Positions 1,332-35,653 of a stretch of DNA of 64,000 bases are shown here, piece by piece (position 1 is the first letter of the stretch; every line of letters begins with the position of its first letter). The notes below the pieces were generated by a model. That model worked only from the letters and a program-made list of their open reading frames with translations, did not search any database and was not told where the DNA came from. The position numbers and the translations under genes are program-made. Origin of the DNA: an uncultured Dehalococcoidales bacterium (GTDB lineage: Bacteria; Chloroflexota; Dehalococcoidia; Dehalococcoidales; BS750m-G39); NCBI GenBank assembly GCA_964505425.1, contig CAZDHX010000003.1, positions 28,004-92,003 on the forward strand. The letters run 5' to 3'.

Positions 1332-1640
1332 ATGGGGAAATGGAAATTCGTCACCAATCACGCCCTGGTGCTCTGCCTGATTGCCCAACAGCCACGAATC
1401 ACCGCCCGGAAGATTGCCGCCACGGCAGGTATCACCGAGAAGGCAACGCGTAACATCATCAACGACCTTGAGGCTGGCGGCTACATCACCAAGACCAGGG
1501 AGGGCCGACGTATCCGCTATGGCGTTGACCCAGAGTTGCCGCTCCGCCACGAAATGCATGAGGGCAAGGCAGTGGGCGCCCTGCTGGAGGTACTGGGCTG
1601 GGTAAAGCAGCGCAAGGAGGTGAAAAGCGCAGCCATCTGA
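1332..1640 (+). CDS. Small winged-helix (ArsR/MarR-like) transcriptional regulator
   Basis: 102 aa. ITARKIAATAGITEKATRNIINDLEAGGYITKTREGRRIRY has the HTH-plus-wing pattern. The gene is divergent from kamA. Confidence 0.6.
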   Translation: MGKWKFVTNHALVLCLIAQQPRITARKIAATAGITEKATRNIINDLEAGGYITKTREGRRIRYGVDPELPLRHEMHEGKAVGALLEVLGWVKQRKEVKSAAI

Positions 1641-1653
1641 AAACGCTAGAATG

Positions 1654-11731: not shown

Positions 11732-11734
11732 CTA

Positions 11735-14534: not shown

Positions 14535-14538
14535 GGCT

Positions 14539-19191: not shown

Positions 19192-19838
19192 CTCTTTGTC
19201 CCCATAAGCCTTTCAAGCAAGAAAGCCTTAGCTTTCTCCTCCCCACCCCTCTTCAAGAGGTCAAGCATAAAATCCAGGTCGAGGGCTTCCTGCCAATCGT
19301 CTCCAGTAAGTTTAACTCCCTGGCGCTTTAGCTCAGCGCGCACCTCGCCAATTAGACGAACCAGAGAAGCGTACTCATCGCCAAAATCTTTCTCCAGCCG
19401 GGTGCGTATTTTTCGTGCCAGAGCCGGGCTTACGCCGCCGGTGGAGACGGCAATACTCAGAGCTCCCCGTCGCATATAAGAGGGTAAAATAAAATCAGAA
19501 TTTTCCGCATCATCAGCCACATTGACCAGGACCGCCTTTTCTTGAGCCTCCTTTACTACCTGCCGATTAATCTCATTACTACTGGTGGCGGCAATGGCGA
19601 TGAGCGCCCCCTGTAAATCGCCGGGCTGATAGTTTCTGCGCAGCAATTTTACCTCCCCCCTCTCAACCAGCTCATTTATTTCCTGACATGGGTCGGGGCT
19701 GATTACCTCAACACTGGCGCCGCATTCAAGAAGTGCTCTCACCTTGCGCCGGGCAACCTCTCCCCCACCGACCACTACACACCTCTTCCCCTTAATCTTG
19801 AGAAATATTGGGTAAAACTCTCGGCTCAACTTCTTCAT
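19188..19838 (-). CDS. sirC: Precorrin-2 dehydrogenase / sirohydrochlorin ferrochelatase-type protein (SirC/CysG-N/Met8 family)
   Basis: 216 aa. FLKIKGKRCVVVGGGEVARRK (Rossmann fold) and SIAVSTGGVSPALAR. Confidence 0.85.
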   Translation of the reverse strand: MKKLSREFYPIFLKIKGKRCVVVGGGEVARRKVRALLECGASVEVISPDPCQEINELVERGEVKLLRRNYQPGDLQGALIAIAATSSNEINRQVVKEAQEKAVLVNVADDAENSDFILPSYMRRGALSIAVSTGGVSPALARKIRTRLEKDFGDEYASLVRLIGEVRAELKRQGVKLTGDDWQEALDLDFMLDLLKRGGEEKAKAFLLERLMGTKR

Positions 19839-21358: not shown

Positions 21359-22725
21359 CTTCCCTCCTGACCGAATTTCTGGCAGTTGTCTATGAAACGC
21401 GCCGCCATTGAAGGCAGGCTGCCCATGTGAAGATGAATATAAGAAGCGAGCAGATTCATATTGTGGAACCCCTCACGGCGTTTGCCTTTATCAATAATAC
21501 AGTACGCCTTAGAAGCGTCAGTGTTTTTCTCCAATACGGACCAGTGGAACTCATGACCGCGCACGGTTTCCCCCTGGCGCAGGAGGGGACCATCGCCCAG
21601 AGCCTGGACTGTCCGATAGCCTAAGCTCAGGCGCGGGCTGTCAATCTGAGAGGAAAGCGGGATAGCCCCTGCCATGGGATATTCGTTGCCTTCTAAATCC
21701 CGAATACTCCTGCCGAGGTACATCAGCCCCCCGCACTCAGCATAAATTGGCATCCCGCGCCCGGCAGCAAGTTTTATTTCTTGCCTGATAGGCTTATTCT
21801 CCGCCAACTCAGCGGCATAAAGCTCAGGGAAGCCACCCCCGATATAGAGACCGGAGATATCCTGCGGCAGTTCTGCATCCTGCAGGGGGCTGAAGGGCAC
21901 AATTTCTGCCCCCCACGCCCCCAGAAGGTCTAAGCTGTCCTGATAGTAAAAGCTAAAAGCCTTGTCCCTTGCTACCGCAATCCTGGCCAGGGCGGGCTTG
22001 GGTTTTGGGGGGAATAATGCCACCTCGGCTTGCGGGACCTTTGCCTCCTCTGAGAATCGTAAAACCTGCGGTATATCAAGTGTCGCCTCACATTGTGCCA
22101 CCAAAAATTTTAGAAATTCCTTACTGGCTGGATCTTCCACCATAGGAACCAAGCCCAGATGTCTTTCCGGCAGGGACAGATTGTCGCGGCGGGGTAGATA
22201 ACCCAGCACGGCAATTTTGGTGTAATGCTCAATGGCTTCCCGGCAAAATCTGAGGTGCTCGTCGCTGCCGATGCCGTTGAGGATAACGCCGCCAAGGTTA
22301 AGAGCCGGGTCAAAAGCCTTATATCCGGCAACCATCGCCGCCAGGCTGCGCGCCCCCTTTCGGCTGTCAACCACCAGTATTACCGGCGCCCCGAGGAGTT
22401 TGGCTAACTCGGCGGTGCTGCCCTCTTCATTTATTGACGAATGCCCATCATAAAGCCCCATCACCCCCTCAATAACGGCAATGTCTTTACCGTGAACCGC
22501 CCGCCCGAAAAGCTCCAGCACAGCGTCACGGGACAAAAGCCAGGTATCCAGATTGCGAGAGGCTTCGCCGGTTACCCAGCTATGATAGCTGGGGTCAATA
22601 TAATCTGGTCCCGTCTTGAAGGGCTGCACCTTAAAACCTTTTTGGCGCAGAGCACCCATCAGCCCGGTAGCAACCGTCGTCTTGCCCACGCCGCTGGTGG
22701 TACCGGCAACAACTATCGCCCTCAT
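21355..22725 (-). CDS. cbiA: Cobyrinate a,c-diamide synthase
   Basis: 456 aa. AGTTSGVGKTT, PFKTGPDYIDP and YAECGGLMYL. Confidence 0.92.
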   Translation of the reverse strand: MRAIVVAGTTSGVGKTTVATGLMGALRQKGFKVQPFKTGPDYIDPSYHSWVTGEASRNLDTWLLSRDAVLELFGRAVHGKDIAVIEGVMGLYDGHSSINEEGSTAELAKLLGAPVILVVDSRKGARSLAAMVAGYKAFDPALNLGGVILNGIGSDEHLRFCREAIEHYTKIAVLGYLPRRDNLSLPERHLGLVPMVEDPASKEFLKFLVAQCEATLDIPQVLRFSEEAKVPQAEVALFPPKPKPALARIAVARDKAFSFYYQDSLDLLGAWGAEIVPFSPLQDAELPQDISGLYIGGGFPELYAAELAENKPIRQEIKLAAGRGMPIYAECGGLMYLGRSIRDLEGNEYPMAGAIPLSSQIDSPRLSLGYRTVQALGDGPLLRQGETVRGHEFHWSVLEKNTDASKAYCIIDKGKRREGFHNMNLLASYIHLHMGSLPSMAARFIDNCQKFGQEGR

Positions 22726-24272
22726 GACTGCTCCTGACCCAGGTCGTATTTTGCCCGGTAACCACGAGGGGTTACCATCCAGCCGCCAAGGGTAAATGTG
22801 GTTGAATTGCCGACAATGACGGTGGTGTTCATGCCAATCTCGTAGTCCAGCATGTGCTCCAAATCGGTGATTAATACCTCTTGCTCCTCCCGATAAGCAT
22901 TGGTAGCAATGCCTACCGGCGTTGATGGCGAGCGATGCTTTAAGATGATTTCCCTGGCTTTAATTAGCTGGCGCTGGCGCTTCTGGCTCTTAGGATTGTA
23001 GAGAATTATTACAAAATTTCCCTCCGCCGCCAGCTCCAGCCGGCGGCTAATTTCCTGCCACGGGACGAGGTAATCGCTGAGGCTTATGCTGACAAAATCA
23101 CCATTTATGGGCGCACCGAGCAAAGCAGCACTGGCTCCCAGCAGGGGTACGCCCGGTATCACCTCTATATCTATATCCCCCGCCTGCTCGCCAAGGATTT
23201 CGCCCACCAGCCCGGCCATGCCGTAGATGCCACTGTCGCCGCTGGAGACGAGAGATACTATTCTTCTCTCCTTAGCCAAGCTAATCGCCGTCTTCACCCG
23301 CTCCACCTCTTCTCCCATGCCGCTAGCGATAACCTTTTTATCGCCGAGGTAAGGCTCAATCAGTTTGATATAGCTCTTATAGCCAACGACTACTTCACTA
23401 TTACTGATAGCCTCTCTGGCTCTAAAGGTCATTTGCTCCGGGTCTCCGGGACCGATGCCGACCAGAAAAAGTTTTCCCCCAGCGGCAGAGCGGGCAACGG
23501 CAATGGTCACTGTCCGCCTAAAACTCACCTTGGGGATAATAAGAGAGTCGCCGCCGCTGCTCAGTAGCGCCGCCGACTCACATACCGCCGGCGTCCCCAC
23601 GTGTTTCAGCACCAGGGGCGAAGGGTGGGATTTCACCTTGCCCAGCGCTTCCTTATCAAAGTACTCTACGGGCAGGCGGTATTTGCGGGCAAATTTTGAG
23701 AGCCCGGGCTCGTTCTTCTTGATATCTATGGTGGCGATATTTCGGATGCCTTTGATAGATAGTCCATATTCTGAAAAAACCTGGCTGACGGCATTTTCTA
23801 TCTCCAGAGCTGCCGTCCCGCGGTTACAGCCGATGCCAACCACCAGATTTTGAGGGATTACCTTGCTTACCTCGGAAGCAGTGGTGACCACCGCACTAGC
23901 GCCGATAAGAGAAGCTATTTTTCCGGCCATCTCGTTAGCGCCACCCTCGTGCCCCGAGAGCAGGCTCACGCTGAATGAGCCGCCTTCATCAACCACCACC
24001 ACACCCGGGTCTTTATGCTTGTCCCTGATTTCGGTAGCTATTAACCGCACGGCGATACCCACCGCCATGATAAGCACCAGGTGCCGGTAGCGGCCGAAAA
24101 CCTCTCTGACCACTTCTCCCACCGGAGAGGAAAATGGGTATTCCCCCGGCTTTGGCTCAAGAGCAAACTTTTGCGGCAGGTAAAGGTGGCCTGCGGGAAA
24201 CCGCTTTTGTAAGCGCTGACCGAGAGCCACCCCCTTTTCGGTTATGGCGACAATGGCTATGTCCTCTTTCAC
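22722..24272 (-). CDS. cbiG/cbiH: Fused CbiG (cobalt-precorrin-5A hydrolase) / CbiH (cobalt-precorrin-3 C17-methyltransferase)
   Basis: 516 aa. The N-terminal ~270 aa are CbiG-like (GIGCNRG..., PAVCESAALL). The C-terminal part is a class III methyltransferase (LFLVGIGPGDPEQMT, SSGDSGIYGMAG). Confidence 0.88.
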   Translation of the reverse strand: MKEDIAIVAITEKGVALGQRLQKRFPAGHLYLPQKFALEPKPGEYPFSSPVGEVVREVFGRYRHLVLIMAVGIAVRLIATEIRDKHKDPGVVVVDEGGSFSVSLLSGHEGGANEMAGKIASLIGASAVVTTASEVSKVIPQNLVVGIGCNRGTAALEIENAVSQVFSEYGLSIKGIRNIATIDIKKNEPGLSKFARKYRLPVEYFDKEALGKVKSHPSPLVLKHVGTPAVCESAALLSSGGDSLIIPKVSFRRTVTIAVARSAAGGKLFLVGIGPGDPEQMTFRAREAISNSEVVVGYKSYIKLIEPYLGDKKVIASGMGEEVERVKTAISLAKERRIVSLVSSGDSGIYGMAGLVGEILGEQAGDIDIEVIPGVPLLGASAALLGAPINGDFVSISLSDYLVPWQEISRRLELAAEGNFVIILYNPKSQKRQRQLIKAREIILKHRSPSTPVGIATNAYREEQEVLITDLEHMLDYEIGMNTTVIVGNSTTFTLGGWMVTPRGYRAKYDLGQEQS

Positions 24273-25018
24273 TTTTCAAAACCTCGGCCGTATAGCTTTG
24301 AACGCTGCTTCTTTTCCTTTGCCTCCAGAAAAGCGCCCACCAGTATCAATGCCTGTTTTTTTATGCCCGATGCCCTCACCTCTGCCACCAGCTTCTTCAG
24401 GGTAGTCCGCAGCATGACCTCGTCCTGCCAGCTAGCTTTATAGATTACCGCCGCCGGGGTTTCGGGGGGATAGCCGCCGGCAAGCAGTTCAGCAACAACC
24501 TTTTCTATAAGCGAGGCGCTCAGGAAAATCGCCATGCTGGACTGGTGCCGGGCCAGGCTTTTGAGGTTTTCCAGAGCCGGCACCGGCGTCTTGCCCTCCA
24601 GGCGGGTGATGATAACCGTCTGGGAAATTTCGGGAACAGTTAGCTCCGTCTTTAAGGCGGCGGCGGCGGCGAATAGGGAGCTCACGCCGGGGATAATCTC
24701 GTAGGCTATGCCCTTACCGTCCAGCACCGCCATCTGCTCCTGGATAGCGCCGTAGATGCTCGGGTCGCCACTCTGCAGCCGGGCAACGACCTTCCCTTCC
24801 TTGACCGCATTGACTATAATCCCGGTTATCTCCTCTAGAGTGAGCGAGGCGCTTCTATAAATCTCAGCCTTCTCCGGAGCAAAGCGGCAGACCTCCGGGT
24901 TTACCAGCGAATCGGCGTAGATAATGACGTCCGCCCGCTTGATGACATTCCTTGCCCGGATAGTTAAAAGCTCCGGGTCACCGGGTCCACCACCGATAAA
25001 ATATACCTTAACCGCCAT
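24269..25018 (-). CDS. cbiF: Cobalt-precorrin-4 C11-methyltransferase
   Basis: 249 aa. VYFIGGGPGDPELLT, QSGDPSIYGA and IPGVSS. Confidence 0.9.
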   Translation of the reverse strand: MAVKVYFIGGGPGDPELLTIRARNVIKRADVIIYADSLVNPEVCRFAPEKAEIYRSASLTLEEITGIIVNAVKEGKVVARLQSGDPSIYGAIQEQMAVLDGKGIAYEIIPGVSSLFAAAAALKTELTVPEISQTVIITRLEGKTPVPALENLKSLARHQSSMAIFLSASLIEKVVAELLAGGYPPETPAAVIYKASWQDEVMLRTTLKKLVAEVRASGIKKQALILVGAFLEAKEKKQRSKLYGRGFEK

Positions 25019-25019
25019 T

Positions 25020-25742
25020 TTATTTCCGCAATATCAGGAGAGAGAAATAATCAACCTTTTTTCCTTTTAGCTGGCTGATGTCACGGACTATCTCCTCGTC
25101 CTGGGTCGTGCCTCTCCTGACATAGACGCACTTATCGGTCAGTTTTAAGTCCTCAAGAATGGCGAGGAGCTTATCAAAAACGTTATTCATCTTAATAAAA
25201 ACTACCGTCTCAAAGTTGGCTATTGTCTCCCTGATAATCTTATCTTCCCGGTTACCCGAGATTATGGCAATACGCTCGTCCTCACTGGCAAGGGGGACTA
25301 TCGCCCGGGCGGCGGCGGCATTAATCGATGATATCCCGGGGATAACCTCAACCACTACCTCGGGGTGGCTCTTTTTTACCGTCTCCAGGATATAAATAAA
25401 GGTCCCGTAGAGAAGAGGGTCACCAACGTTAACAAAGGCGCAGTCCTCCCCCTTCTCAAGATGCCGCCAGATTGTATCCGCCGCCTGCTGCCAGTAATCT
25501 TTGAGCTGCTCCTTGCCTCTCAGCATGGGAAAAACCAGCTCAACAACCTTCTGTTCTGGCTCCTTTATAAGACGGGCAACAATGGACCTTGCGTAGCTCT
25601 TGCTTTGCCTGTCTTTTAATGGCACGAAGATAACCGCCACACGGGACAGGACATTATACGCCTTCAGTGTCAAGAGCTCCGGGTCACCCGGCCCCACCCC
25701 CACCCCGTAGAGGCGGCCAATTCCCGTTTTTTTGTTACCCAT
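25020..25742 (-). CDS. cbiL: Cobalt-precorrin-2 C20-methyltransferase
   Basis: 240 aa. LYGVGVGPGDPELLTLKA, GDPLLYGTF and IPGISS. Confidence 0.88.
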   Translation of the reverse strand: MGNKKTGIGRLYGVGVGPGDPELLTLKAYNVLSRVAVIFVPLKDRQSKSYARSIVARLIKEPEQKVVELVFPMLRGKEQLKDYWQQAADTIWRHLEKGEDCAFVNVGDPLLYGTFIYILETVKKSHPEVVVEVIPGISSINAAAARAIVPLASEDERIAIISGNREDKIIRETIANFETVVFIKMNNVFDKLLAILEDLKLTDKCVYVRRGTTQDEEIVRDISQLKGKKVDYFSLLILRK

Positions 25743-25765
25743 TCAACCACGCCCTCCTCAACAAT

Positions 25766-27028
25766 TTACAATTCAAAATCAGCGGGCCAGGGGCTATGAA
25801 GGCACTCCTCATAATAGCGGGCGGGCAGGCTAAGCATGGACGCCTTGGTCATCAAGGATGCCCAGTACATACCACGCCGGGTAACCTCAACATGTGTGGG
25901 GTGTTCTTCGATGAGATTCAGTAGCTTGAGCATAAGCATGAACCTCCCCATTGCCCGCTCCATCTTGACCCCGAAGCGCTTTTCAAATTCGGACTTCTCC
26001 ACCCTCAGCCGATATAGTCCCATCATGAACCACCGCCTCATCACCCGGTCTGGCGGCGTGATTGTCCCCGTAGCTATAGGTAAACCTGCTTCCACCCTTT
26101 TTATATACTCCCTGAGGGAGAAGGTATTGACATAGAACAAGCCCCCGATTTTGGTATAGGCGCTAATCCCCACCCCGATATTCTCGTCGCGGGTGCAGGT
26201 GACATACTGCGCCCCACCCCCATTGGTAAACTCCCAGCAGGTATCCTGCTTGTAGCCGTTAGCAGTAAGGAAATCAATAACGGTATAGAACATCTCCCGT
26301 TCTAAAGACGAGGGCGGGGTAGTGAGCCGCCCCTCCTGGACATCGCGATACCAGCGGGTATAGGGGAAGAGCATAAGAGGATAATACGCAATTTGATGGG
26401 CACCGGTCTTAGCCGCCACCTCCAGGTCACCCAGCAGGCTGGGGATTTGCTGCCGGGGTAGGCTATGCATCAGGTCAATGCTGACGTAGAACCCCTCACT
26501 GAGCAAAAGCTCTATCGCCTTGAGCACCGCCCTGGCATCATAGCCCCGCCCCATACCCCTCAGGACTTCAGCGTCAAAGGACTGCACCCCCAGGCTGATT
26601 TTGGTGACGCCGGCCTGCTTCACTGCCCGGCACATCTCAGCGTTTATATCCTCAGAGTTTGCCTCAAAGCCGACCTCGCCCTCCATCTCAAACCTGGACC
26701 TTACAAAATCCATAATCTCAACTATCCCCTCCCAGGTGAGGCTGGGGGTGCCGCCGCCAAAATAGACATCGCCTATCTTGATTTTCCCCAGTTTGTCACG
26801 GTAGGTCTGGATTTCTTTTTTCACCGCCTCAATATAAGGGGCGACCTTGCTCGGGGAATAGCGCAGGCTATGAAAACAACAGTAGGAGCAAAGATGGCGG
26901 CAGAAGGGCAGGTGAATATACCAGCCAATGCCATCCAGGGCCGGCGGAAATTCTGGCTCAATCGGGGAGAACCTCGTCCCTCTAAGCCCCCTCTTTATCA
27001 TTGACGGCGCCATTCTCTCTGCAATCAA
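25766..27028 (-). CDS. HemN/HemW-like radical-SAM protein (coproporphyrinogen dehydrogenase family) embedded in the cbi operon
   Basis: 420 aa. YIHLPFCRHLCSYCCF (CxxxCxxC), GGGTPS and a HemN_C-like tail. The TTG start lies 1 nt after the cbiET stop, and the stop lies 23 nt before the cbiL start. Confidence 0.8.
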   Translation of the reverse strand: MIAERMAPSMIKRGLRGTRFSPIEPEFPPALDGIGWYIHLPFCRHLCSYCCFHSLRYSPSKVAPYIEAVKKEIQTYRDKLGKIKIGDVYFGGGTPSLTWEGIVEIMDFVRSRFEMEGEVGFEANSEDINAEMCRAVKQAGVTKISLGVQSFDAEVLRGMGRGYDARAVLKAIELLLSEGFYVSIDLMHSLPRQQIPSLLGDLEVAAKTGAHQIAYYPLMLFPYTRWYRDVQEGRLTTPPSSLEREMFYTVIDFLTANGYKQDTCWEFTNGGGAQYVTCTRDENIGVGISAYTKIGGLFYVNTFSLREYIKRVEAGLPIATGTITPPDRVMRRWFMMGLYRLRVEKSEFEKRFGVKMERAMGRFMLMLKLLNLIEEHPTHVEVTRRGMYWASLMTKASMLSLPARYYEECLHSPWPADFEL

Positions 27029-27029
27029 G

Positions 27030-28250
27030 TTATTCCTCCTTCTTTACTCCGCTGACGACAAAGACCGGATTCAAGGTTTCGAAGCGGGTAAGCTCCATAA
27101 CACCAGTACTGCGGGCTATATTTACCAGGGTTATATCAGGCACAAAGCCCCTGGCTTTAAGGGCGTCGACGGCGGCGCTCAGGTTTTCCAGGGCAACGAT
27201 GTTCATAACAATGCGCCCGCCGGGCTTTAGCCTTCGGTTGACCAGGTCCAGTATCTCCTTAACTCTCCCCCCGCTACCCCCGATAAAGACGGCGGTGGGG
27301 TCGGGCAAACTGTTTAAACCATCCGGGGCAAAGGTCTTGACCACCTCAACATTAGAGGCATTAAATTTTCGGATATTTTTTCTGATTATGGCTACATCTT
27401 TTTCGTTCTTTTCTATAGCGTAGATATGCCCTTTTCTGACAAGAAAGGAGGCTTCAATAGATACCGCCCCCGAGCCGGCGCCAATATCCCAGACGATACT
27501 GTTTTCAGTAAGCGCCAGCTTGGCAAGGCTTATTGACCTCACCTCCTGCTTGGTGATAAGCCCCTCCCGGCGGCGATGGAAGTTTTCTTCGGGAATCCCC
27601 ATTATTCGCTGAGGTCTCGGCTTGGATTTCTCCCTTAATAAAATCAGGACGTTGAGTGGAGAAAACTTCATCTTGACCAAGCCGCGTAAATCGGTCTTGA
27701 CGACCTTTTCTTCTTTGCTGCCAAGGTCCTGGCAGACATAAGCCCAGTAGCCGTCAACGCCGTGTTCCAGCAACACCCTGGCAATAGCCGCCGGGGTATG
27801 CTTATTATCAGTAAAAATGCCGATTTTAGCATTTAACCCCACCACCCCGACAATCTCCGCGATGGGCCTGGAGTGGACGCTGACAAAGACGGCGTCCTCC
27901 CAGCTTTCTTTAATGCGGGCAAAGGCCAGCTGCATGGCGCTTACGTTGGGTATTATGTCAATAACGCTCTTGCCCAACTTAGCCGTCAGATAGCCGGCTA
28001 TGCCGTAAAAATTGGGTTCACCGGAAGCCAGCACGACCATTCGTTTCCGCCCCAGGTTTCTCTCGATTAAATCGGCTACTTCAGCTAGGTTATTTTTGAT
28101 AGTTATTTTCTCCCCGCTCAGCGAGGGAAACATCCGAATTAATCGCCTACCACCGAAGACAATCTCCGCCCGGTTTAGCAGGCGGCGTGCTTCCGGCAAC
28201 AAGCTTCCCTCGGGTGCCACCCCAATAATATGGACCCTATGTCTTGACAT
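27030..28250 (-). CDS. cbiE/cbiT: Fused CbiE/CbiT (cobalt-precorrin-7 C5-methyltransferase / cobalt-precorrin-6B C15-methyltransferase, decarboxylating)
   Basis: The N-terminal half is CbiE-like (HIIGVAPEG, ASGEPNFYG). The C-terminal half is CbiT-like (VWDIGAGSGAVSIE). The ATG at 28250 with a GGGAGGG Shine-Dalgarno is preferred over the track start at 28277, which overlaps cbiD. Confidence 0.88.
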   Translation of the reverse strand: MSRHRVHIIGVAPEGSLLPEARRLLNRAEIVFGGRRLIRMFPSLSGEKITIKNNLAEVADLIERNLGRKRMVVLASGEPNFYGIAGYLTAKLGKSVIDIIPNVSAMQLAFARIKESWEDAVFVSVHSRPIAEIVGVVGLNAKIGIFTDNKHTPAAIARVLLEHGVDGYWAYVCQDLGSKEEKVVKTDLRGLVKMKFSPLNVLILLREKSKPRPQRIMGIPEENFHRRREGLITKQEVRSISLAKLALTENSIVWDIGAGSGAVSIEASFLVRKGHIYAIEKNEKDVAIIRKNIRKFNASNVEVVKTFAPDGLNSLPDPTAVFIGGSGGRVKEILDLVNRRLKPGGRIVMNIVALENLSAAVDALKARGFVPDITLVNIARSTGVMELTRFETLNPVFVVSGVKKEE

Positions 28251-29328
28251 CAGCCCTCCCCAGAATAATGCCGTCATAGCTGCTCATGATACATTCCACC
28301 TCAAGTTTTCCCCCCACCTTATCACGGCACTTTTCTGCCGCCAGCAGACAGAGCTTATTACAGAATCTTTGGCTATGTTCCGGGGGGAGCATCTTGCGGA
28401 GGTGATTGGCGGTGACGGCTCCTCTCAAGGACCGGACTACCTTCTCGGGCACACCACAACCTGCCGCCACTCCCGCCAGGAAACCGATGTCCACCCTGGA
28501 ATCGCTGACATTGGTATACATGTGTCCGGCGGCAAGCTTGCTCAGCTTACCCATCATGCCCCAGATGGTTACTTTCTCAAAAGACCTCCGGGCGCATTGC
28601 TCAAGTGAGTAGCCGATAAAATCTCCGGCTTGAACGAAACATTCTTCAGCCAGTTTCAGCTCGCCCTGGGCGAATTTCTCGCTTCTCCTGCCCGTGGTCA
28701 ATACTACCTGGCGGCAGCCGCAAGCTACGGCTACATCCAACGACTGAAAGAGGCAAGCCTTATAGGCGCTAACCGAATAGGGGATGACAACCCCGGTAGT
28801 GCCCAAAATTGAGATGCCACCGATTATCCCCAGACGCGGATTCAGCGTTCTTCTGGCTAACCCTTCTCCTTCGGCTACCGAGATTACTACTTCAATGCCC
28901 TTGCCGTCATTTTCTGGCATTACCTCTCTCACCGAGCTCTCTATCATCCGGCGGGGCACGGGGTTAATCGCCGCCATACCAATCGGTATTTCCAGCCCGG
29001 GCTTGGTAATTATCCCCACTCCCTCCCCTCCCCCGATATCAATCCCCGGCTTATCCTTCCAGGAGACCTTAGCCCAGATTTCCGCCCCATGGGTGACATC
29101 CGGGTCGTCACCGGCGTCTTTTATCACCGAGCACACAGCCTGGCTTTTTCCGAAGGTGCAGTGGCTGATTTTGAATAGAGCCTGTCGTCCGGCAGGGAGA
29201 GAAACCTGAACTTGCTTGACCGCCTCCTGCTTGAGCAGAGCGATAGTCGCTGCCTGCGCTGCGGCGGCAGCACAGGCTCCGGTGGTATAGCCGGAGCGCA
29301 GAGACCGTTTATCTCGTCTCACCGTCAT
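28237..29328 (-). CDS. cbiD: Cobalt-precorrin-5B C1-methyltransferase
   Basis: 363 aa. LRSGYTTGACAAAAA, KDAGDDPDVTHG and GTTGVVIPYS. Confidence 0.9.
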   Translation of the reverse strand: MTVRRDKRSLRSGYTTGACAAAAAQAATIALLKQEAVKQVQVSLPAGRQALFKISHCTFGKSQAVCSVIKDAGDDPDVTHGAEIWAKVSWKDKPGIDIGGGEGVGIITKPGLEIPIGMAAINPVPRRMIESSVREVMPENDGKGIEVVISVAEGEGLARRTLNPRLGIIGGISILGTTGVVIPYSVSAYKACLFQSLDVAVACGCRQVVLTTGRRSEKFAQGELKLAEECFVQAGDFIGYSLEQCARRSFEKVTIWGMMGKLSKLAAGHMYTNVSDSRVDIGFLAGVAAGCGVPEKVVRSLRGAVTANHLRKMLPPEHSQRFCNKLCLLAAEKCRDKVGGKLEVECIMSSYDGIILGRADVKT

Positions 29329-30170
29329 ACGGCTTTCCTCCCCATCACTCTCAATAGCTCCCGCCTCGCCTCACCAATAGTCAGCGGCATCTCCGGGAAA
29401 TCTATTCCCTCTCTCTTTTGCAGAATCTCAACGAGATGGGCTACCCGTGGCAGCCTTAGCTCTGCTTCCCTAATCATATCGGTATCGGTAAACACCTCCG
29501 CTGGCGGTCCTTCGGTGACTATCTTACCCTTACTCATAATAGCGACGCGGTCGGAGAATAGAGGCACCAGCTCAACATCATGGGTAGCCATTATCATGGT
29601 CGTTCCCCTCTCCTGGTTCAGTTTCCGGAGTAAACGCATAATGGAACTGGCACCCTTGGGGTCCAGACCGCTGGTCGGTTCATCCAATAAAATTATTTCT
29701 GGCTCCATCGCCAGGACGCCGGCAATAGCCACCCGCCTTTTCTGCCCGAAGCTCAAGGTGTGAATGGCTCGGTCGGGAAGCTCGGCGGCACCCACCAATT
29801 TCAAGGCTTCGGCGGTTCTCCGCGTCACCTCAGCCGGCTCTAGCCCCAGGTTCACCGCGCCAAAGGCGACATCCTGCCCCACGGTAGCGCCGAAAAGCTG
29901 GTCGTTAGGGTCTTGAAAGACCATCCCCACCCGCCGGAAAATCTCTTCGTCTCTGAAGAAACGAAGCTCCCTGCCGTCCAGAAATACCTTGCCCAAGGAC
30001 GGTTTTAGTAAGCCGTTTAGCTGTTTCAGTAGCGTTGTCTTGCCGCAACCGTTAGCCCCCAGAAGGGCTAAGAATTCGCCGCCCCCTAACTCCAGGTTGA
30101 TTTTACCTAGAGCCGGGGTAAAACCGTCATAGCTAAAGGACAAGGCTTCGGTCTTTATCATGCTCTCCAC
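29325..30170 (-). CDS. cbiO: ECF cobalt transporter ATPase
   Basis: 281 aa. Walker A GANGCGKTT, signature LSFGQKRRVAIAG and Walker B ILLDEPTSGLD. Confidence 0.9.
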   Translation of the reverse strand: MESMIKTEALSFSYDGFTPALGKINLELGGGEFLALLGANGCGKTTLLKQLNGLLKPSLGKVFLDGRELRFFRDEEIFRRVGMVFQDPNDQLFGATVGQDVAFGAVNLGLEPAEVTRRTAEALKLVGAAELPDRAIHTLSFGQKRRVAIAGVLAMEPEIILLDEPTSGLDPKGASSIMRLLRKLNQERGTTMIMATHDVELVPLFSDRVAIMSKGKIVTEGPPAEVFTDTDMIREAELRLPRVAHLVEILQKREGIDFPEMPLTIGEARRELLRVMGRKAV

Positions 30171-30940
30171 TGCCCGATAAGATAGAGAATTGCCAGCACG
30201 GCGGTTAAACCAACGGCAGCCATAAAATCCTTCCGGCCAAAGTGTCCGGCATAATCAACGGCCAGAGCGCCGCTGTAACCTCGCGCTATCATCGCCTCAA
30301 AGACCCTCTCCGCCCGGTCGTAGGCTCGTAAGACCAAAATACCGCCCAGCGTGCCCACCGACCTCATACCCCGCCGCCAGTTGTCGTAGCCCAAGCGTAC
30401 CCTCTGGGCATCTTTTACGGCTATCGCCTCCTCGATAAGGACAAAGATGTAGCGATAAATCAGCAGCGACAGCTCAACAAAGACTTTAGGCAACCGGAAC
30501 CAGCGAGCCGCCCTGAGTAGCCGGTGGGCTGGCGTGGACATACCCAAGAACAGAATTAGTGACATGCCACCGATGACGCGGCACATGATTAAGAGACCAT
30601 GAGCCAGACCCTCTTCGTAGCCCACCAGGTCGAGTCCCAAAAAGGGGACGGCAAACAAAGGGGTGGTGCCATAAAAGAATAGCTGCGTAATCAGCACCAC
30701 TGCCGCCATGACCAGAGGCATAATCAGCCTCAGCATAAGTAGCCTTGGCGGAATTCTGATAGCCAGCAGGGTAGCCAGGCAAAAAACAGCGATGGCTATC
30801 GGCGTATAGATGCTCGGCGATAAGAGATTAATCACCAGGGCAACCACGGTAAAGGCTGTCTTGGTGCGTGCCTCTATCCCGGTCACCCAGTTCTCTCTGT
30901 GGGCGAAGGCATCGGAAAAAATACCGCTTTTATCAAACAT
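30158..30940 (-). CDS. cbiQ: ECF cobalt transporter T component
   Basis: 260 aa polytopic membrane protein in the cbiMNQO position. It carries a CbiQ-like RA..R motif region (AERVFEAMIARGY). Confidence 0.85.
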   Translation of the reverse strand: MFDKSGIFSDAFAHRENWVTGIEARTKTAFTVVALVINLLSPSIYTPIAIAVFCLATLLAIRIPPRLLMLRLIMPLVMAAVVLITQLFFYGTTPLFAVPFLGLDLVGYEEGLAHGLLIMCRVIGGMSLILFLGMSTPAHRLLRAARWFRLPKVFVELSLLIYRYIFVLIEEAIAVKDAQRVRLGYDNWRRGMRSVGTLGGILVLRAYDRAERVFEAMIARGYSGALAVDYAGHFGRKDFMAAVGLTAVLAILYLIGQWRA

Positions 30941-30960
30941 CTATATCAGCCAGCAGCGCT

Positions 30961-31260
30961 TCACCTCCCCGCTTTTTCAGCAATAAGCCTCCTCCAGTAG
31001 TAGCCGGTAACAAATCCACCCACTGCCCCACCGAAGGCGAAAACAAAGAGCAACAGGTCACCTTTATCGGTGTTGATGAAAGGCTCGCTTGGTTCCCTGC
31101 CGGCATCAGTGGCATATTTTTCAATGACGCTAACGTCCACCCCTCCCCAGGGACCCTCCTCTCCCTCAGGTACCTGCTTGGACAGGGCAAGCCACCCCCA
31201 GACGGCTAGAGCCACCAAAACGACCACGATAACAGTGGTGATTATCCTGGAACTTTTCAT
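30961..31260 (-). CDS. cbiN: Cobalt transport protein CbiN
   Basis: 99 aa with two TM helices flanking a soluble loop, in the position between cbiM and cbiQ. Confidence 0.8.
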   Translation of the reverse strand: MKSSRIITTVIVVVLVALAVWGWLALSKQVPEGEEGPWGGVDVSVIEKYATDAGREPSEPFINTDKGDLLLFVFAFGGAVGGFVTGYYWRRLIAEKAGR

Positions 31261-32051
31261 TAGTCACCTCCTTTTACCAGACTGGGCACTGGCTTGAAAG
31301 CTCCGGGGATTATGCGGGTTAATAACTCCGGCCGGCGGTGATAGACGAATGTTACCACTCCCCCGGTGAATAACCCCTCCAGAATGCCCAGTGGCAACTG
31401 AGTGGGAGCGAAGGCAACGGCAATGGCACCGAACATGCTCCATAATGAGCCAGTACCGTGTAAAGCCGAGGCTAGCTCAAAAGAGGTTGTAGCGTATGTT
31501 GCCCAGTCACCCAAGAGTCCGGCGGCGAAGGCAGCCACAAATATGGGGGCGTTGAACCTCCGGAACAAAACAAAGACACCAAAGCCAACGAAAGAACCAA
31601 CCAGAGCCATAGAAACGATATTAGCCCCCCAGGTAGTTATACCGCCGTGTGCCAGAAACAGGGCCTGGATAAGAAGGGCCAGCGCCCCGAGAACAGTGCT
31701 GATAAACGGCCCCACCAGGATTGCCCCCAGGGGGGTGCCGCAGGGGTGGGAACAGCTTCCCGAAACCGGGACCGGGATGGGGAAAACGGAAATTAGGAAT
31801 ATCAGCGCCCCGGCGATGCCGAGCAGAGGCAGCAGCCCTCTTACCTCTCTGGTCTTCCTTCTGATGATGATAATGCCAATGACCACAAATACGGCGGCTA
31901 TCACGTACCATATCGCTGCCCAGCTGGCGGGTAGAATCCCCTCAGCGATGTGCATGGCATATGCCGGGGTGGGGCACAATAACAGCCCGATGGCAAGCAC
32001 CAGTGCCAAGGCAATATGAGTCCTGAACCAGCTATAACCTTTATTGAGCAT
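31260..32051 (-). CDS. cbiM: Cobalt ECF S component CbiM, with a cleavable signal peptide exposing MHIAEG
   Basis: 263 aa. ...LLLCPTPAYA|MHIAEGILP: an AxA cleavage site sits directly before the metal-binding Met-His N-terminus typical of CbiM/NikM. Confidence 0.88.
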   Translation of the reverse strand: MLNKGYSWFRTHIALALVLAIGLLLCPTPAYAMHIAEGILPASWAAIWYVIAAVFVVIGIIIIRRKTREVRGLLPLLGIAGALIFLISVFPIPVPVSGSCSHPCGTPLGAILVGPFISTVLGALALLIQALFLAHGGITTWGANIVSMALVGSFVGFGVFVLFRRFNAPIFVAAFAAGLLGDWATYATTSFELASALHGTGSLWSMFGAIAVAFAPTQLPLGILEGLFTGGVVTFVYHRRPELLTRIIPGAFKPVPSLVKGGD

Positions 32052-33072
32052 TCAACCTACCTCCAGCAATCTTTAATAGAGTATTAACCGTAGCCACCGC
32101 CAGGGCGCTGCCGCCCCGAGTTCCGGCTACGGTGACATATGGTATATCCCGTTTCATTAATTCATCCTTTGATTCCTTCGCCTGCACAAAACCGACCGGC
32201 ATCCCCACAACAAGAGCCGGTCTTACCCCGTCATTATCAATCAACTCCAGCAGAGCCAGGAGGGCGGTGGGGGCATTGCCGATGGCGACTATGGCACTAT
32301 TAAGCCTCGCCCCCAGATGACGCATTGCCGCCGCGGCCCGGGTGGTATTCGGTTTTAGCCCCTCCGCTTCATCCATGGCACAAGAAACAGAACAGCCGCA
32401 GGCTTCAGCCAGACGCCGATTAATGCCGGCAGCTACCATCCGAACGTCGGTAAAGATAGGACTGCCTTTAGCTATGGCGCTTATGCCACCGGAGACCGCC
32501 GAGGAGCTGAACCTTACCAAGGGAACAAGCTGGGGATCGCCACCGGCATGGACAACATGCTTTACTACCATTCGCTCCTCTGCGGAGATTTTTAGCGAGG
32601 GAGGTAAAAGTCCTTCCACAATCTCCATACTCCTCTGCTCAATGTCCTGGGGGGAAGCCAGCGAAAGATGGGCATCCGGCAAAAGCTCCGGAGCCGCTTC
32701 CTGAATGCGCCTTGCCACGCGAGCTATTAGAAGTTCATCGTTACCGAGGGTATTGGCAGCAACAAATTGCACCTTTGGATAAATGCCCCTGAGCTTCTCA
32801 ATAAGCTGAGGGATGTCCTCGGTGATGTGCCGCCCTCTAAAAAGAAAGTAGGGCACGATTACTATCCGCTCCACCCCCCACCCTGCCAGAGACGCCACCG
32901 CTTCCTCAAAAGTGGGGCGATTAAACTGGAGTGCCGCCCCGATAACCTCAACGCCGGGGGCTAGGAGGGGCTTTACCCCTTCGCTGAGCCTCTTCAAGGT
33001 CTCAGTGACCTCGACACTACCCCGTTCACCACGACTGCCGTGGCATAAGATAACTATCCCCGTCTGCGGCAT
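32041..33072 (-). CDS. cbiX/cbiC: Fused small CbiX (sirohydrochlorin cobaltochelatase) / CbiC (cobalt-precorrin-8 methylmutase)
   Basis: The N-terminal ~120 aa are GIVILCHGSRG...VIVPYFLFRGRHITEDIP (CbiX-S type). The C-terminal ~210 aa are CbiC-like (HAGGDP, IFTDVRMV, IGNAPTAL, VVGMPVGFV). ATG 33072 is preferred because the track start at 33141 lies on the -35 hexamer. Confidence 0.85.
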   Translation of the reverse strand: MPQTGIVILCHGSRGERGSVEVTETLKRLSEGVKPLLAPGVEVIGAALQFNRPTFEEAVASLAGWGVERIVIVPYFLFRGRHITEDIPQLIEKLRGIYPKVQFVAANTLGNDELLIARVARRIQEAAPELLPDAHLSLASPQDIEQRSMEIVEGLLPPSLKISAEERMVVKHVVHAGGDPQLVPLVRFSSSAVSGGISAIAKGSPIFTDVRMVAAGINRRLAEACGCSVSCAMDEAEGLKPNTTRAAAAMRHLGARLNSAIVAIGNAPTALLALLELIDNDGVRPALVVGMPVGFVQAKESKDELMKRDIPYVTVAGTRGGSALAVATVNTLLKIAGGRLNAQ

Positions 33073-33098
33073 ATTACACAACCCGACCTGATTAAAAA

Positions 33099-33141
33099 CA
33101 AGTCTGCTTGTTAGTATACAAGCGCCGATTTTACCTGTCAA
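33099..33141 (-). promoter_or_regulatory. cbi/hem super-operon promoter (minus-strand TTGACA-N17-TATACT) with the overlapping half-site array CTTGT-N6-ACAAG-N4-CTTGT
   Basis: -35 is plus-strand TGTCAA at 33136-33141 and -10 is plus-strand AGTATA at 33113-33118. Inverted pentamers at 33119-33123, 33108-33112 and 33099-33103 span the -10 and the TSS. The leader to ATG 33072 is only ~30 nt. Confidence 0.6.
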
Positions 33142-33167
33142 TAATTGGGGGGTAAATCAAAAGCGGA

Positions 33168-33965
33168 TTACCGGCTCTTCTTCAGGCGCAGGTCGATAAG
33201 CTCGTAAGCCAGCTCTTCTTCCTGCTGCAGCCTCTTAATCAGCCCGGGGATAGCGTCATCGGTGCAGACCACGGTAAAAGGCAAGCCACAGCGGGCAGCC
33301 TCAATGGCGGCTTCGGTAACGCCGTAAAGATAGTGGGGCTCAATACCAATTCGTCTCAGCGAAACCAGAGCCTCAATGCCGATAGCCCCAAGCTGCTGAT
33401 TATCGGCGGCGCGGGTTTTTAACCGTTTCCGGTCAACCTGCCTTGAGCCACCCTTCTGAATGCTCGGCACCTGCAGGATAGTTATCCTGCCCCTGGTCAA
33501 TTCCACCAGTCCTTCAATGCTAGCCACGTCCACATCCTCACCCCGCCTCACGCTTGATACGGCAATACCCCTGGCGCCGCTCTTTGTCTGAGTGGCGGCA
33601 AAGAGCAGACCGTCCTTCATCTTAAGCCCCACCGCCTGCCCCTGATCTATATCGGACTCAGCGATGGCAGCACAGACGGTAATATTGGTCACTGCCTGCT
33701 CTACCATGGAAGCGTAGTCCCTGAGCTCCCGTAGTATCTTGAGCATCCAGTTAACTCCCTTAGTGCTCACCCGGTAGTGAGAGCGAGCGGTTGAGACAAC
33801 GAGGTCCTCATTCACCAACTGATGAATATAGTCTGATATTGCCTGCGGTGTGATGCCCAACTTAACGGCGATGCTCTTCTGCTGAATACCGGGGCCAGAG
33901 GTGGCAATCTCAACCAGTATCTGAAATCTGGTGGCGGCATTCTTATTCTGCAGTATCTCTACCAT
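33168..33965 (-). CDS. Winged-helix transcriptional regulator with a ~190-aa uncharacterised C-terminal domain (archaeal COG1497-like by recollection)
   Basis: 265 aa. N-terminus TRFQILVEIATSGPGIQQKSIAVKLGITPQAISDYIHQLVNEDLVV is a wHTH. It lies 5 nt downstream of the CDF gene, so it is probably co-transcribed with it. Confidence 0.6.
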   Translation of the reverse strand: MVEILQNKNAATRFQILVEIATSGPGIQQKSIAVKLGITPQAISDYIHQLVNEDLVVSTARSHYRVSTKGVNWMLKILRELRDYASMVEQAVTNITVCAAIAESDIDQGQAVGLKMKDGLLFAATQTKSGARGIAVSSVRRGEDVDVASIEGLVELTRGRITILQVPSIQKGGSRQVDRKRLKTRAADNQQLGAIGIEALVSLRRIGIEPHYLYGVTEAAIEAARCGLPFTVVCTDDAIPGLIKRLQQEEELAYELIDLRLKKSR

Positions 33966-33970
33966 CGCTC

Positions 33971-34897
33971 CTAGCCTCTCCTATTCTTTATGGTACAGGA
34001 AACGGAACACTGGTCGCACTCAGTAGTGCATGGCTCAACATGAATAGTGATATGAGTGCGGGGCAATTTCCTCTTTATATCTCGTTCCAGGTGGTCGCAG
34101 ACGCGGTGGGCTTCCGCCACACTCTCATGCTTGGGCATTACCAGGTGCAGGTCAACGTAGCGATAGCTCCCCGCCTTGCGAGTGCGCAGGTCGTGAAAGG
34201 CAACCATACGATAATTATACTTCATAATACAAGCCCTTATAACCGTCTCCTCCGCCTCAGGCAACTTGACGTCAATCAGCCCCCCAAACGAGCCTTTCAG
34301 CACATCATAACCTGTTTTCATAATAAGCAAGGCTACTGCCAGGGCGATAACAGGGTCTAGAATATTAAGCCCGGTAAAGCGTACGGCTAACAGCCCTCCT
34401 AGCACCGCCGCCGCGGAATAGACATCAACGGCAATATTTTGCGCGTTTGCCCGCAAGGCTATTGAGTCCACTGCCTTGGCTACCTTGGACAGGTAGCGGG
34501 AAAGAAAGATGCTGGCTATCATCGAGACCAGCATTACCGCTATACCGGCTTCAGCCAGCTCCACCACTGCTCCGGTTATTATTCTCTGTACCGCCGAATA
34601 AATAATCAAGCCGCCGACAACTAAAATCAGGCCCGCCTGCGCCACAGCGGCGATGTTCTCCACCTTGCCATGACCAAAGGGGTGCTCCCTATCGGCAGGC
34701 TTGGTGGCTATTCTAATAGCCACGAAGGTAACGACCACGGCAAGCAAATCAAGGGAGCTATCCACCGCCTGCGCTAGTATGCTGATGCTGCCGGTGATAA
34801 CCGCCACCGCCACCTTGAGCACTATCAGCCCAATTACCACGATGAGCATGAGCTTAACGGCGCTCTTTTGCTCGGAGTCTCCCCTTTTCCTGGCCAT
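33971..34897 (-). CDS. czcD: Cation diffusion facilitator (CzcD/FieF-type) metal exporter
   Basis: Six TM helices with the ...SLDLL... and HxxxD-type motif region, then a cytoplasmic domain (VDLHLVMP...HITIHVEP). ATG 34897 (MARKRGD, AGGAG Shine-Dalgarno) is preferred. The track start at 34942 lies inside the riboswitch terminator stem. Confidence 0.88.
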   Translation of the reverse strand: MARKRGDSEQKSAVKLMLIVVIGLIVLKVAVAVITGSISILAQAVDSSLDLLAVVVTFVAIRIATKPADREHPFGHGKVENIAAVAQAGLILVVGGLIIYSAVQRIITGAVVELAEAGIAVMLVSMIASIFLSRYLSKVAKAVDSIALRANAQNIAVDVYSAAAVLGGLLAVRFTGLNILDPVIALAVALLIMKTGYDVLKGSFGGLIDVKLPEAEETVIRACIMKYNYRMVAFHDLRTRKAGSYRYVDLHLVMPKHESVAEAHRVCDHLERDIKRKLPRTHITIHVEPCTTECDQCSVSCTIKNRRG

Positions 34898-34915: not shown

Positions 34916-35002
34916 GAAAAAACCCGTGGTGCCTGGTCCCACGGGTTCAAGTCCCGCTGCTGCAAGTTCAGCCCGGTTCTATAAAGACCTGTTCCAGGCT
35001 CT
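34916..35002 (-). promoter_or_regulatory. NiCo (czcD-motif) riboswitch with an intrinsic-terminator expression platform
   Basis: The minus strand reads AAGAGCCUGGAACAGGUCUUUAUAGAACCGGGCUGAACUUGCAGCAGCGGGACUUGAACCCGUGGGACCAGGCACCACGGGUUUUUU. The conserved ACAG / CGGGCUGAAC / GCAG / CGGGAC / CGUGGGAC blocks match my recollection of the NiCo consensus. P1 is CCUGG/CCAGG. The terminator stem ACCCGUGG/CCACGGGU plus U6 shares its 5' arm with the aptamer. A CDF exporter lies downstream. Confidence 0.7.
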
Positions 35003-35008
35003 TTAAAA

Positions 35009-35037
35009 ATTGTAACCCGGCAGCAGGGTCGTGTCAA
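35009..35037 (-). promoter_or_regulatory. Promoter of the riboswitch-czcD-regulator unit (minus-strand TTGACA-N17-TACAAT)
   Basis: Plus-strand TGTCAA at 35032-35037 and ATTGTA at 35009-35014. It sits back-to-back with the mocA-like promoter. Confidence 0.65.
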
Positions 35038-35083: not shown

Positions 35084-35653
35084 ATGCTATCAGCAATATT
35101 ACTGGCCGGCGGCGAATCAAAGCGCATGGGCAAGCTAAAGCAACTGATGCCCCTGGGCAAAAGCACCATTTTGGAGCAAGCCATTGATAACCTCTTAAGT
35201 TCAACAGCGGATGAGGTTATCGTGGTGGTGGGGTATAAAGCGGAAGAGATAACAAAAGCCATAGCCGCCAAGCCGGTAAAAATAATTGCTAACCCAAACT
35301 ACCAGCAGGGGATGAGCACCTCGATAATAACCGGACTAATTCTGGTTGACCCCCGGGCTGAGGCGGTTATGCTCGCCCTGGGCGACCAGCCCATGGTGAA
35401 CAGCCAGACGATTAACCAATTAATAGCCGAATTTCATAACCACGATAAAGGTATTGCCCTCCCCACCTACAGGGGCAAGCGGGGACACCCGGTCATCTTT
35501 GCCACCAAATATAAAGCGGAGCTGCTCAAGTTGAAGGGTGACATCGGCGCCAAAGAGATAATCGAACACCACCCCCAGGACGTCCTTGAGGTATCCGTTG
35601 GCTCTGAGGGCGTCATCACTGATATTGATACCGAAGAGGACTACCCTGCTTGA
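35084..35653 (+). CDS. mocA: MobA/MocA-like nucleotidyltransferase (molybdenum cofactor cytidylyl/guanylyl-transferase family)
   Basis: 189 aa. ILLAGGESKRMG..K.L, MSTSI and LGDQP motifs. Confidence 0.8.
   Translation: MLSAILLAGGESKRMGKLKQLMPLGKSTILEQAIDNLLSSTADEVIVVVGYKAEEITKAIAAKPVKIIANPNYQQGMSTSIITGLILVDPRAEAVMLALGDQPMVNSQTINQLIAEFHNHDKGIALPTYRGKRGHPVIFATKYKAELLKLKGDIGAKEIIEHHPQDVLEVSVGSEGVITDIDTEEDYPA

Follow-up and report, generated by a model that had tools for sequence, protein, structure and literature searches.

A DUF7839-family regulator as the probable repressor of corrinoid genes in Dehalococcoidales-type bacteria, placed in one lineage behind a cobalt/nickel riboswitch

The window analyzed here is a 64-kb stretch (64,000 nucleotides) of DNA from an uncultured Dehalococcoidales bacterium (GenBank assembly GCA_964505425.1, contig CAZDHX010000003.1, positions 28,004 to 92,003). 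Its minus strand carries, in this order, a NiCo riboswitch with its terminator, a cation efflux gene of the CDF (cation diffusion facilitator) family, a 5-nt gap, the gene of a regulator with an N-terminal winged helix-turn-helix (wHTH), 26 nt, a promoter, a leader, and the cbi operon for cobalamin (B12) synthesis, which runs from cbiX/C to hemL. The subject of this article is that regulator, together with its predicted operator at the cbi promoter. The features of the locus are as follows:

35009–35037, minus strand: promoter of the NiCo–CDF–regulator unit, just 5′ of the aptamer; TTGACA at 35037–35032, a 17-nt spacer and TACAAT at 35014–35009 (11 of 12 consensus positions)
34932–35006, minus strand: NiCo (czcD-type) aptamer; RF02683, 38.3 bits against a gathering score of 37, E = 4.8e-5
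about 34916–34948, minus strand: intrinsic terminator of the riboswitch; AACCCGUGGG...CCACGGGUU, then a U run
33971–34897, minus strand: CDF-family cation efflux gene, 308 aa, with its ATG at 34897, assigned by Pfam and TIGR01297
33168–33965, minus strand: regulator gene, 265 aa; wHTH, long helix, beta-barrel and DUF7839
33113–33141, minus strand: promoter of the cbi operon; TTGACA at 33141–33136, a 17-nt spacer and TATACT at 33118–33113 (11 of 12 consensus positions)
33098–33111, minus strand: predicted operator box 1, ACAAGCAGACTTGT, which abuts the −10 and covers the predicted transcription start site (TSS)
33078–33091, minus strand: predicted operator box 2, TCAGGTCGGGTTGT, 20 nt downstream of box 1, which covers the ribosome-binding region
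33106–33123, minus strand: inverted repeat GCTTGT-N6-ACAAGC, specific to the window, which contains the upstream CTTGT arm of the repeat described in an earlier note on this DNA (the original prediction)
13260–33072, minus strand: cbi operon of 19 genes, assigned with Pfam and NCBIfam

The stop codon of the CDF gene lies at 33971–33973 and the ATG of the regulator at 33965–33963; both the coordinates of the regulator gene and its start 5 nt behind the CDF gene had been given correctly in the original prediction. The same holds for its strong promoter 26 nt past the regulator stop, since 26 nt separate that stop (33168) from the −35 box of the near-consensus cbi promoter. The first gene of the operon, cbiX/C, starts with the ATG at 33072; the TTG at 33141, called as its start by the open reading frame tool, was rejected because this TTG is the −35 box itself. 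With a TSS predicted near 33105/33106, the leader measures about 34 nt (about 30 nt had been claimed), which leaves no space for a B12 aptamer. A search for the cobalamin riboswitch (RF00174), which had been declared missing, gave no match in 10000–36500 even at E ≤ 10; at the gathering threshold, neither the window as a whole nor 24 related loci (about 293 kb) contained one.

The 19 genes of the operon follow the order cbiX/C, cbiM, cbiN, cbiQ, cbiO, cbiD, cbiE/T, a HemN-like radical SAM gene, cbiL, cbiF, cbiG/H, cbiA, cbiP, sirC, hemA, hemC, cobA/hemD, hemB and hemL, and the cbi gene order is kept in related loci (designated below by numbers with the prefix L). The radical SAM gene, of HemN/HutW-like type, lies between cbiE/T and cbiL (25766–27028, minus strand), a position that is also conserved (e.g., L004 17142–18407, L007 5070–6080). 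A gene for CbiJ, the cobalt-precorrin-6A reductase, is not among the 19.

Gene linkage was surveyed by tblastn of the window proteins against 22 genome loci and further contigs with homologues 50–57% identical, with additional Pfam checks, for a total of 25 independent loci of the bacterial (Dehalococcoidales-type) clade. In 21 of them, the regulator gene is linked to corrinoid genes, immediately upstream and on the same strand. The most frequent arrangement is that of the window, with the regulator directly before the cbi operon (cbiX/C; 14 independent loci). In L011 the cbi operon opens with a cbiK gene and also holds a BtuF-like gene. Elsewhere the regulator precedes cobA/btuR (L029, L034, and L035), a radical SAM gene followed by cbiZ, cbiA, cbiP, and btuR (L032), or genes for a Peripla_BP_2 (BtuF-like) protein and FecCD (L030 and L036). 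Finally, in L027 a regulator 50% identical to that of the window precedes the gene of a secreted transcobalamin-like protein of 652 aa (1054–3012, plus strand).

The L027 protein joins a prenyltransferase/SQHop-cyclase-like alpha-toroid to a DUF4430 domain, the same pair of domains that makes up transcobalamin and intrinsic factor; in transcobalamin-type B12 binders, DUF4430 forms the C-terminal domain (PMC4350170). In the cobA-type loci, genes for a DUF169 protein and a nitroreductase-family protein are found after the regulator and cobA, in a conserved trio (L029 2850–4424, L034 7376–8695, L035 7584–8449). In L006 and L007, a gene on the opposite strand is inserted between the regulator and cbiX/C, and the promoter and its box remain with cbiX/C. 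The product of the inserted gene (216 aa) has N-terminal RGSSKTLK repeats, one membrane helix and no Pfam match, and the gene is preceded by a c-di-GMP-II-GAG riboswitch (RF03169, 50 bits; L006 3301–3385 and L007 1516–1600, both on the minus strand).

Upstream of cbiX/C, the intergenic DNA has diverged among the loci except for the −35, the −10, box 1 and a degenerate box 2. When 14 target promoters are aligned without gaps, the −35 box shows no variation; box 1, a 14-bp palindrome of consensus tCAAG-N4-CTTGt directly after the −10, has invariant CAA and TT columns and a nearly invariant adjoining G. The second box is more degenerate and lies exactly 20 nt downstream of the first, over the ribosome-binding region. 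Two boxes at this spacing are also found in L010, L011, L022, L027 (two weak boxes, at 993 and 1013), L030, and L036, and in the distant clade described below. The original prediction had described the element as CTTGT-N6-ACAAG-N4-CTTGT at 33099–33123. This composite is present exactly and covers the −10 and the TSS, with an offset of one base (33098–33122), and its chance expectation is 0.06 per window at up to two mismatches. Its upstream arm, located in the spacer between the −35 and the −10, varies among loci, and CTTGT-N6-ACAAG was therefore rejected as the conserved operator. The downstream part, ACAAG-N4-CTTGT, is not significant on its own in 64 kb (2 observed versus 1.46 expected at up to one mismatch); its significance comes from conservation across loci, not from its frequency in the window.

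For cross-validation, a position weight matrix was trained on 13 cbi-promoter boxes only. With the window site left out of the training, box 1 stood out as a unique site in the 64 kb, as the top match of the matrix (18.7 bits, versus 10.3 for the next), and box 2 ranked third to fourth. Of 14 independent loci that were not used for training, eight had their top match no more than 300 nt away from the regulator gene (binomial P about 1e-7). L036 provides a ninth case, with a match of 19.1 bits at +351 nt, before the btuF-like gene, and a second box at +20.

A metagenome scan provided a more distant clade of 55 loci, whose proteins are about 30% identical to that of the window; for the contig scan, the family-wide alignment proved too diverse and a subfamily alignment was used. 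In 46 of these 55 loci, the top match of the matrix lies 59–93 nt upstream of the homologue (nominal P 5e-63, many of the loci being related). In this clade, pairs of boxes at the 20-nt spacing adjoin a TATA-like TATAAG, in what looks like an archaeal-type promoter. Beside the regulator are encoded BtuF, FecCD and an ATPase (7 loci), a DUF4430 protein (7 loci), or a DUF6580 membrane protein (5 loci). In 17 loci of this clade (L042–L116), a secreted PQQ-type beta-propeller protein is encoded divergently, with the two-box operator in between. One example is L042 6241–7908 (minus strand, 555 aa), of which the N-terminal ~140 residues appear DUF4430-like by eye, with no Pfam call. In Methanococcus voltae (L117, 6930–7000), TTCAAGTCACTTGAA is found about 35 nt upstream of the start codon of the homologue, with the same half-sites and a spacer of 3 instead of 4 nt; the neighbors encode an NMT1-type binding protein and a MoeA-PBP fusion and are not B12 genes.

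The presence of the box next to the regulator gene across clades points to a family-wide cis element, the signature predicted for the binding site of the regulator. The palindrome at the −10 and TSS of the cbi promoter is thus very probably its operator, as judged from sequence conservation. In loci without the CDF gene, the regulator has a promoter of its own, in which an extended −10 (TGnTATAAT) is followed by an rAAAG-N4-CTTGA box, which suggests that the regulator may control its own expression.

In the AlphaFold model, the regulator consists of a wHTH (aa 1–66), a long helix (68–95), a beta-barrel (98–151) and an alpha/beta DUF7839 domain (161–258), with a pLDDT (predicted local distance difference test) of 82 over the full length and 89 for residues 96–265; full-length homologues have the same architecture. 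Assignment of the C-terminal domain to a family, called for in the original prediction, led to DUF7839 (PF25211; residues 155–255, 96.3 bits against a cut-off of 27, E = 1.3e-27). At the N-terminus, HTH_24 scores 24.3 bits (cut-off 21.9), and residues 8–66 are modeled as three helices and a beta wing. The MarR models remain just under their cut-offs (MarR_2, 26.8 versus 27; MarR, 23.7 versus 24.6), and the compact all-helical dimerization fold of MarR proteins (~140 aa) is absent, the 170 extra residues forming the beta-barrel and the alpha/beta domain. The name “MarR family” that databases give to homologues mirrors the HTH only. Membership of the DtxR/MntR family was likewise rejected, as the matches in the PDB, SloR and ScaR, are confined to query residues 12–81 and homologues of the regulator conserve no Cys or His. 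The regulator is therefore a member of the DUF7839 family and not a bona fide MarR or DtxR protein.

This family comprises about 400 clusters at 50% identity, with a close clade from Dehalococcoidales/Chloroflexota and distant members from methanogens and haloarchaea. Three motifs, GEDVGV, P-x4-GGSR, and FG..A..EAA..GL, recur throughout the family. Neither Cys nor His is conserved in the family-wide alignment, which argues indirectly against direct sensing of Co(II). No NCBIfam model matched the regulator, and sequence, profile and Foldseek searches of the PDB matched only the wHTH (MarR, BusR, IclR, SloR, ScaR). A structure-based assignment of the ligand was attempted and was unsuccessful, since the full-length model matched wHTH proteins only, with BusR and MarR-type repressors as the best Foldseek matches (E about 1e-3). 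The model of residues 96–265 had no Foldseek match in the PDB better than E = 0.013. Weak Foldseek matches give the beta-barrel a vague likeness to phage head-decoration domains, and the alpha/beta domain a vague likeness to methylglyoxal-synthase-like or P-loop-kinase-like folds. Literature searches on DUF7839, COG1497, and PF25211 found nothing relevant; AmzR (bioRxiv 2025.05.05.652248) was considered as a related regulator and rejected, as it belongs to an unrelated zipper-type family.

On the upstream side of the regulator, the score of the aptamer places it, marginally, within RF02683. The terminator forms a 10-bp stem in the minimum free energy fold (z about −3) and shares sequence with the 3′ part of the aptamer, as is typical of ON switches for Co/Ni; with an efflux gene downstream, the expression platform is that of a NiCo riboswitch. 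The efflux protein belongs to the CDF family (Pfam Cation_efflux, E = 4e-41; ZT_dimer, E = 1e-23; TIGR01297, 222 bits) and matches none of the NCBIfam equivalogs at their cut-offs (DmeF, 45.7 versus 250). Its specificity for Co/Ni is presumed from the riboswitch. A scan of the coding strand for sigma-70-like promoters, from the riboswitch to the ATG of the regulator, found none. The claim that the regulator sits behind a NiCo-controlled CDF gene is supported in the window, where the regulator lacks a promoter of its own and follows the CDF gene at 5 nt, and where the riboswitch has a terminator. Its expression there would depend on the riboswitch.

The CDF gene and the NiCo riboswitch precede the regulator only in the window and in two relatives, L006 and L013, in which the equivalent aptamers score 38.7 and 35.5 bits, respectively, and the CDF–regulator spacing is about 12–14 nt. 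The co-occurrence that the original prediction had named as a check was found in part: the regulator accompanies the cbi operon in 14 loci and the box motif travels with it, whereas the CDF gene is present in three genomes only. A general link of the family to CDF proteins or metal efflux was rejected on this basis, the only addition to the three genomes being one CsoR-like neighbor in L015. Judging from this distribution, the coupling to CDF and NiCo is a secondary, lineage-specific addition and not the ancestral logic of the system.

The only other metal-related context seen is that of L015 and L016, where a CsoR/RcnR-type repressor is encoded divergently from the regulator homologue (L015 9525–9827 and L016 1611–1913, both on the minus strand), with an MMPL/RND-like transporter downstream. 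In the window, the gene divergent from the NiCo promoter is mocA, for molybdenum cofactor cytidylyltransferase (35084–35653, plus strand). It is also a neighbor in L006 and L013, so that the NiCo–CDF–regulator block is syntenic across the three genomes. At the other end of the cbi operon, hemL is directly followed on the same strand by otsA and otsB, for trehalose-6-phosphate synthase and phosphatase (10925–13210, minus strand). A fluoride-riboswitch-like match at 19587–19645 (plus strand) stays below the gathering score of 34 with 23.6 bits; it falls inside the sirC/cbiP coding region, in antisense orientation, and is probably due to chance.

The core of the original prediction, a regulator that takes the role of a B12 riboswitch at the cbi promoter, very probably holds on these comparisons, and it extends to a family-wide pair of regulator and operator. 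On balance, and with moderate confidence, we favor a model in which the regulator represses the B12 regulon through the two boxes in response to a corrinoid effector, with the cobalt-riboswitch wiring as a secondary trait of the window lineage. In this model, the regulator would be the dedicated transcription factor of the cbi promoter and would bind as a dimer to each of the two 14-bp palindromes, 20 bp (about two helical turns) apart; once bound over the TSS and the ribosome-binding region, it would block RNA polymerase. Repression, rather than activation, is the natural reading, since the boxes overlap the TSS and the ribosome-binding site of a near-consensus promoter that should need no activator. 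The C-terminal domains may sense a corrinoid (B12/cobamide or a late intermediate) as co-repressor, which would reproduce in protein form the negative feedback of the B12 riboswitch. A corrinoid is favored over cobalt as the signal because the targets are the gene classes of the cobalamin riboswitch, including loci with salvage genes only or uptake genes only, at which a cobalt sensor would be of little use.

In the window and its two relatives, the autoregulated promoter of the regulator would have been lost and replaced by the NiCo–CDF unit. The riboswitch would terminate transcription unless Co or Ni is bound, so that the dosage of the repressor would rise with cobalt and, under cobalt excess, damp cobalt uptake by cbiMNQO. 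Such a cobalt feed-forward is plausible as a refinement restricted to this one lineage. The original prediction had offered it as a plausible reading of the circuit. What stands of that claim is the link of the regulator to the cbi operon, an operator position that fits a repressor and the absence of a B12 riboswitch; what changes is the standing of the NiCo link, found in three genomes only, and the choice of signal, which is more likely a corrinoid.

Several points weigh against the corrinoid-repressor model. The effector is named from the content of the regulon alone; in the PDB searches the sensor domains had no solved structural relative, and they contain no recognizable B12-binding motif such as DxHxxG. 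No B12 genes are adjacent to the regulator in L001, L015, L019, and L021 of the bacterial clade, nor in the archaeal loci L028, L031, L117 (M. voltae), and L118 (Halosimplex); in view of these archaeal contexts, we propose the link to B12 for the Dehalococcoidales-type clade and, partly, for one distant clade, and do not extend it to the whole family. Furthermore, transporters of the BtuF/FecCD type could move other metal chelates. As for the wiring in the window, the NiCo score exceeds its threshold by only 1.3 bits, and, if the regulator were made only at high cobalt, feedback by B12 would fail when cobalt is low, barring leakage of the riboswitch. Moreover, the stretch from the regulator gene to the cbi promoter lacks a terminator, so that a cobalt-induced transcript could read through into the cbi operon, an effect that the bound regulator, as a roadblock, could counter.

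The alternative that survives best, although we regard it as unlikely, is a circuit dedicated to cobalt, in which either a ligand-free regulator whose level is set by the NiCo riboswitch, or a direct Co/Ni sensor, shuts off uptake and corrin synthesis. It is consistent with the predicted co-transcription of the regulator with the CDF gene behind NiCo and terminator in three genomes, with the presence of cbiMNQO in the target operon and with the wHTH itself, which is most similar to the DtxR/MntR-type proteins SloR and ScaR (profile E = 2.6e-9). The niche is also open, as no protein sensor was known to regulate a cobalt importer according to a 2021 review (PMC7689651). However, most loci have neither CDF nor NiCo, and the regulator there carries a boxed promoter of its own; at loci without a cobalt transporter, the only genes behind relatives are cobA, cbiZ, btuF-like, or transcobalamin-like ones. 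The DtxR-type similarity is confined to the HTH, and the lack of conserved Cys and His speaks against this circuit as well. The conserved two-domain C-terminal part of 170 residues, for its part, implies a ligand, and a repressor switched on simply by being expressed is unlikely.

A second alternative keeps repression of the same promoters and assigns the regulator another metabolite, such as an early tetrapyrrole, S-adenosylmethionine, or a nucleotide. We give this one a rather low probability. The operon does hold the whole branch from 5-aminolevulinic acid (ALA) to precorrin-2 (hemA–hemL, sirC), the P-x4-GGSR loop shared across the family is reminiscent of loops that bind phosphate, the alpha/beta domain weakly resembles phosphate- and nucleotide-binding folds, and the archaeal members are not beside B12 genes; the salvage-only contexts (cobA, cbiZ, btuF-like, DUF4430), on the other hand, are specific to corrinoids and not to tetrapyrroles in general.

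It is highly improbable, lastly, that the repeats are RNA or terminator features next to the regulator by coincidence, with GCUUGU-N6-ACAAGC and its U-rich tail ending the CDF–regulator transcript or a 5′ hairpin acting on the cbi mRNA: the segment at 33106–33123 does fold at −9.1 kcal/mol in the window and was flagged as terminator-like in the scan, but no hairpin forms at the equivalent position in L013, L006, or L008, an RNA hairpin at box 1 was rejected since no covariation stands out against shuffled controls and 7 of the 14 sequences break the inner pair, the motif accompanies the regulator gene both in bacterial-type and in archaeal-type promoters, at differing positions, and a leader of 34 nt offers too little room for a B12 aptamer.

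The closest functional counterpart of the corrinoid-repressor model is the cobalamin (adenosylcobalamin) riboswitch regulon (RF00174). The genes controlled are the same, namely de novo cbi genes, the cobalt ECF (energy-coupling factor) transporter, BtuF/FecCD, cobA/btuR, and cbiZ, and so presumably is the logic of negative feedback by the end product. The difference lies in the means: no aptamer is present, and control would fall to a protein that recognizes a palindrome in the promoter DNA. To our knowledge, bacteria are considered to control B12 synthesis and uptake almost entirely through RNA, and we know of no B12 riboswitches in archaea. Protein replacements of vitamin riboswitches do exist, mostly in archaea, in the form of the archaeal proteins ThiR (thiamine) and RbkR (riboflavin); the HTH of RbkR is among the PDB profile matches of our regulator (entry 3cta). 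Like these, the regulator is a one-component protein with an N-terminal wHTH and a ligand domain, adjoins vitamin genes and has a palindromic operator. It differs from them in its vitamin (B12), in its sensor (a beta-barrel and DUF7839, without a solved relative), and in belonging to a bacterial clade. No comparable protein regulator of a B12 regulon emerged from literature searches that covered Dehalococcoidia and archaea.

For the coupling of cobalt efflux to corrin status, the closest precedent is CoaR of Synechocystis, a MerR-family protein with a precorrin-isomerase-like domain that activates an efflux ATPase (PMC7689651). In both systems cobalt efflux is coupled to the state of the corrin pathway, and a dual metal and tetrapyrrole input has been proposed for CoaR. 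CoaR, however, is a single protein of an unrelated family that senses both signals and acts on an efflux ATPase, whereas here the metal input would come from a riboswitch and the target is an operon for biosynthesis and uptake. CDF exporters controlled by NiCo (czcD) riboswitches have been described (Furukawa et al., 2015, as cited in PMC7689651). The window shares with them the aptamer and terminator before a CDF gene and the Co/Ni ON switch, and differs by the gene of a transcription factor on the same transcript, which would result in a cascade from riboswitch to repressor directly upstream of the target operon. Finally, BusR (wHTH, coiled coil, RCK_C ligand domain) and MarR-type proteins resemble the regulator in architecture, with a C-terminal ligand module behind an HTH and a long helix. 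Actual similarity is limited to the wHTH and the helix; the regulator has unrelated C-terminal domains and lacks the MarR dimerization fold.

Corrinoids are central to the ecology of Dehalococcoidia-type organisms. More tentatively, and with some doubt, it may be proposed that DUF7839 and the beta-barrel form a corrinoid-sensing module, that the regulator is the first protein transcription factor to feedback-regulate B12 genes in place of a riboswitch, and that cobalt supply, read by an RNA sensor, and B12 status, read by a protein sensor, are integrated at one promoter from which the cobalt importer is expressed as well. With a defined family, a 14-bp operator and a set of target promoters, the existence of a protein-based B12 or cobalt regulon is directly testable. 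If true, the model would offer a natural case in which a metal riboswitch sets how much of a metabolite-sensing repressor is made, and synthetic biology might gain a new B12-responsive part from it. It would also assign a function and a DNA motif to the uncharacterized DUF7839 family and would account for the regulation of corrinoid genes in the many Dehalococcoidia-type genomes without cobalamin riboswitches at those genes.

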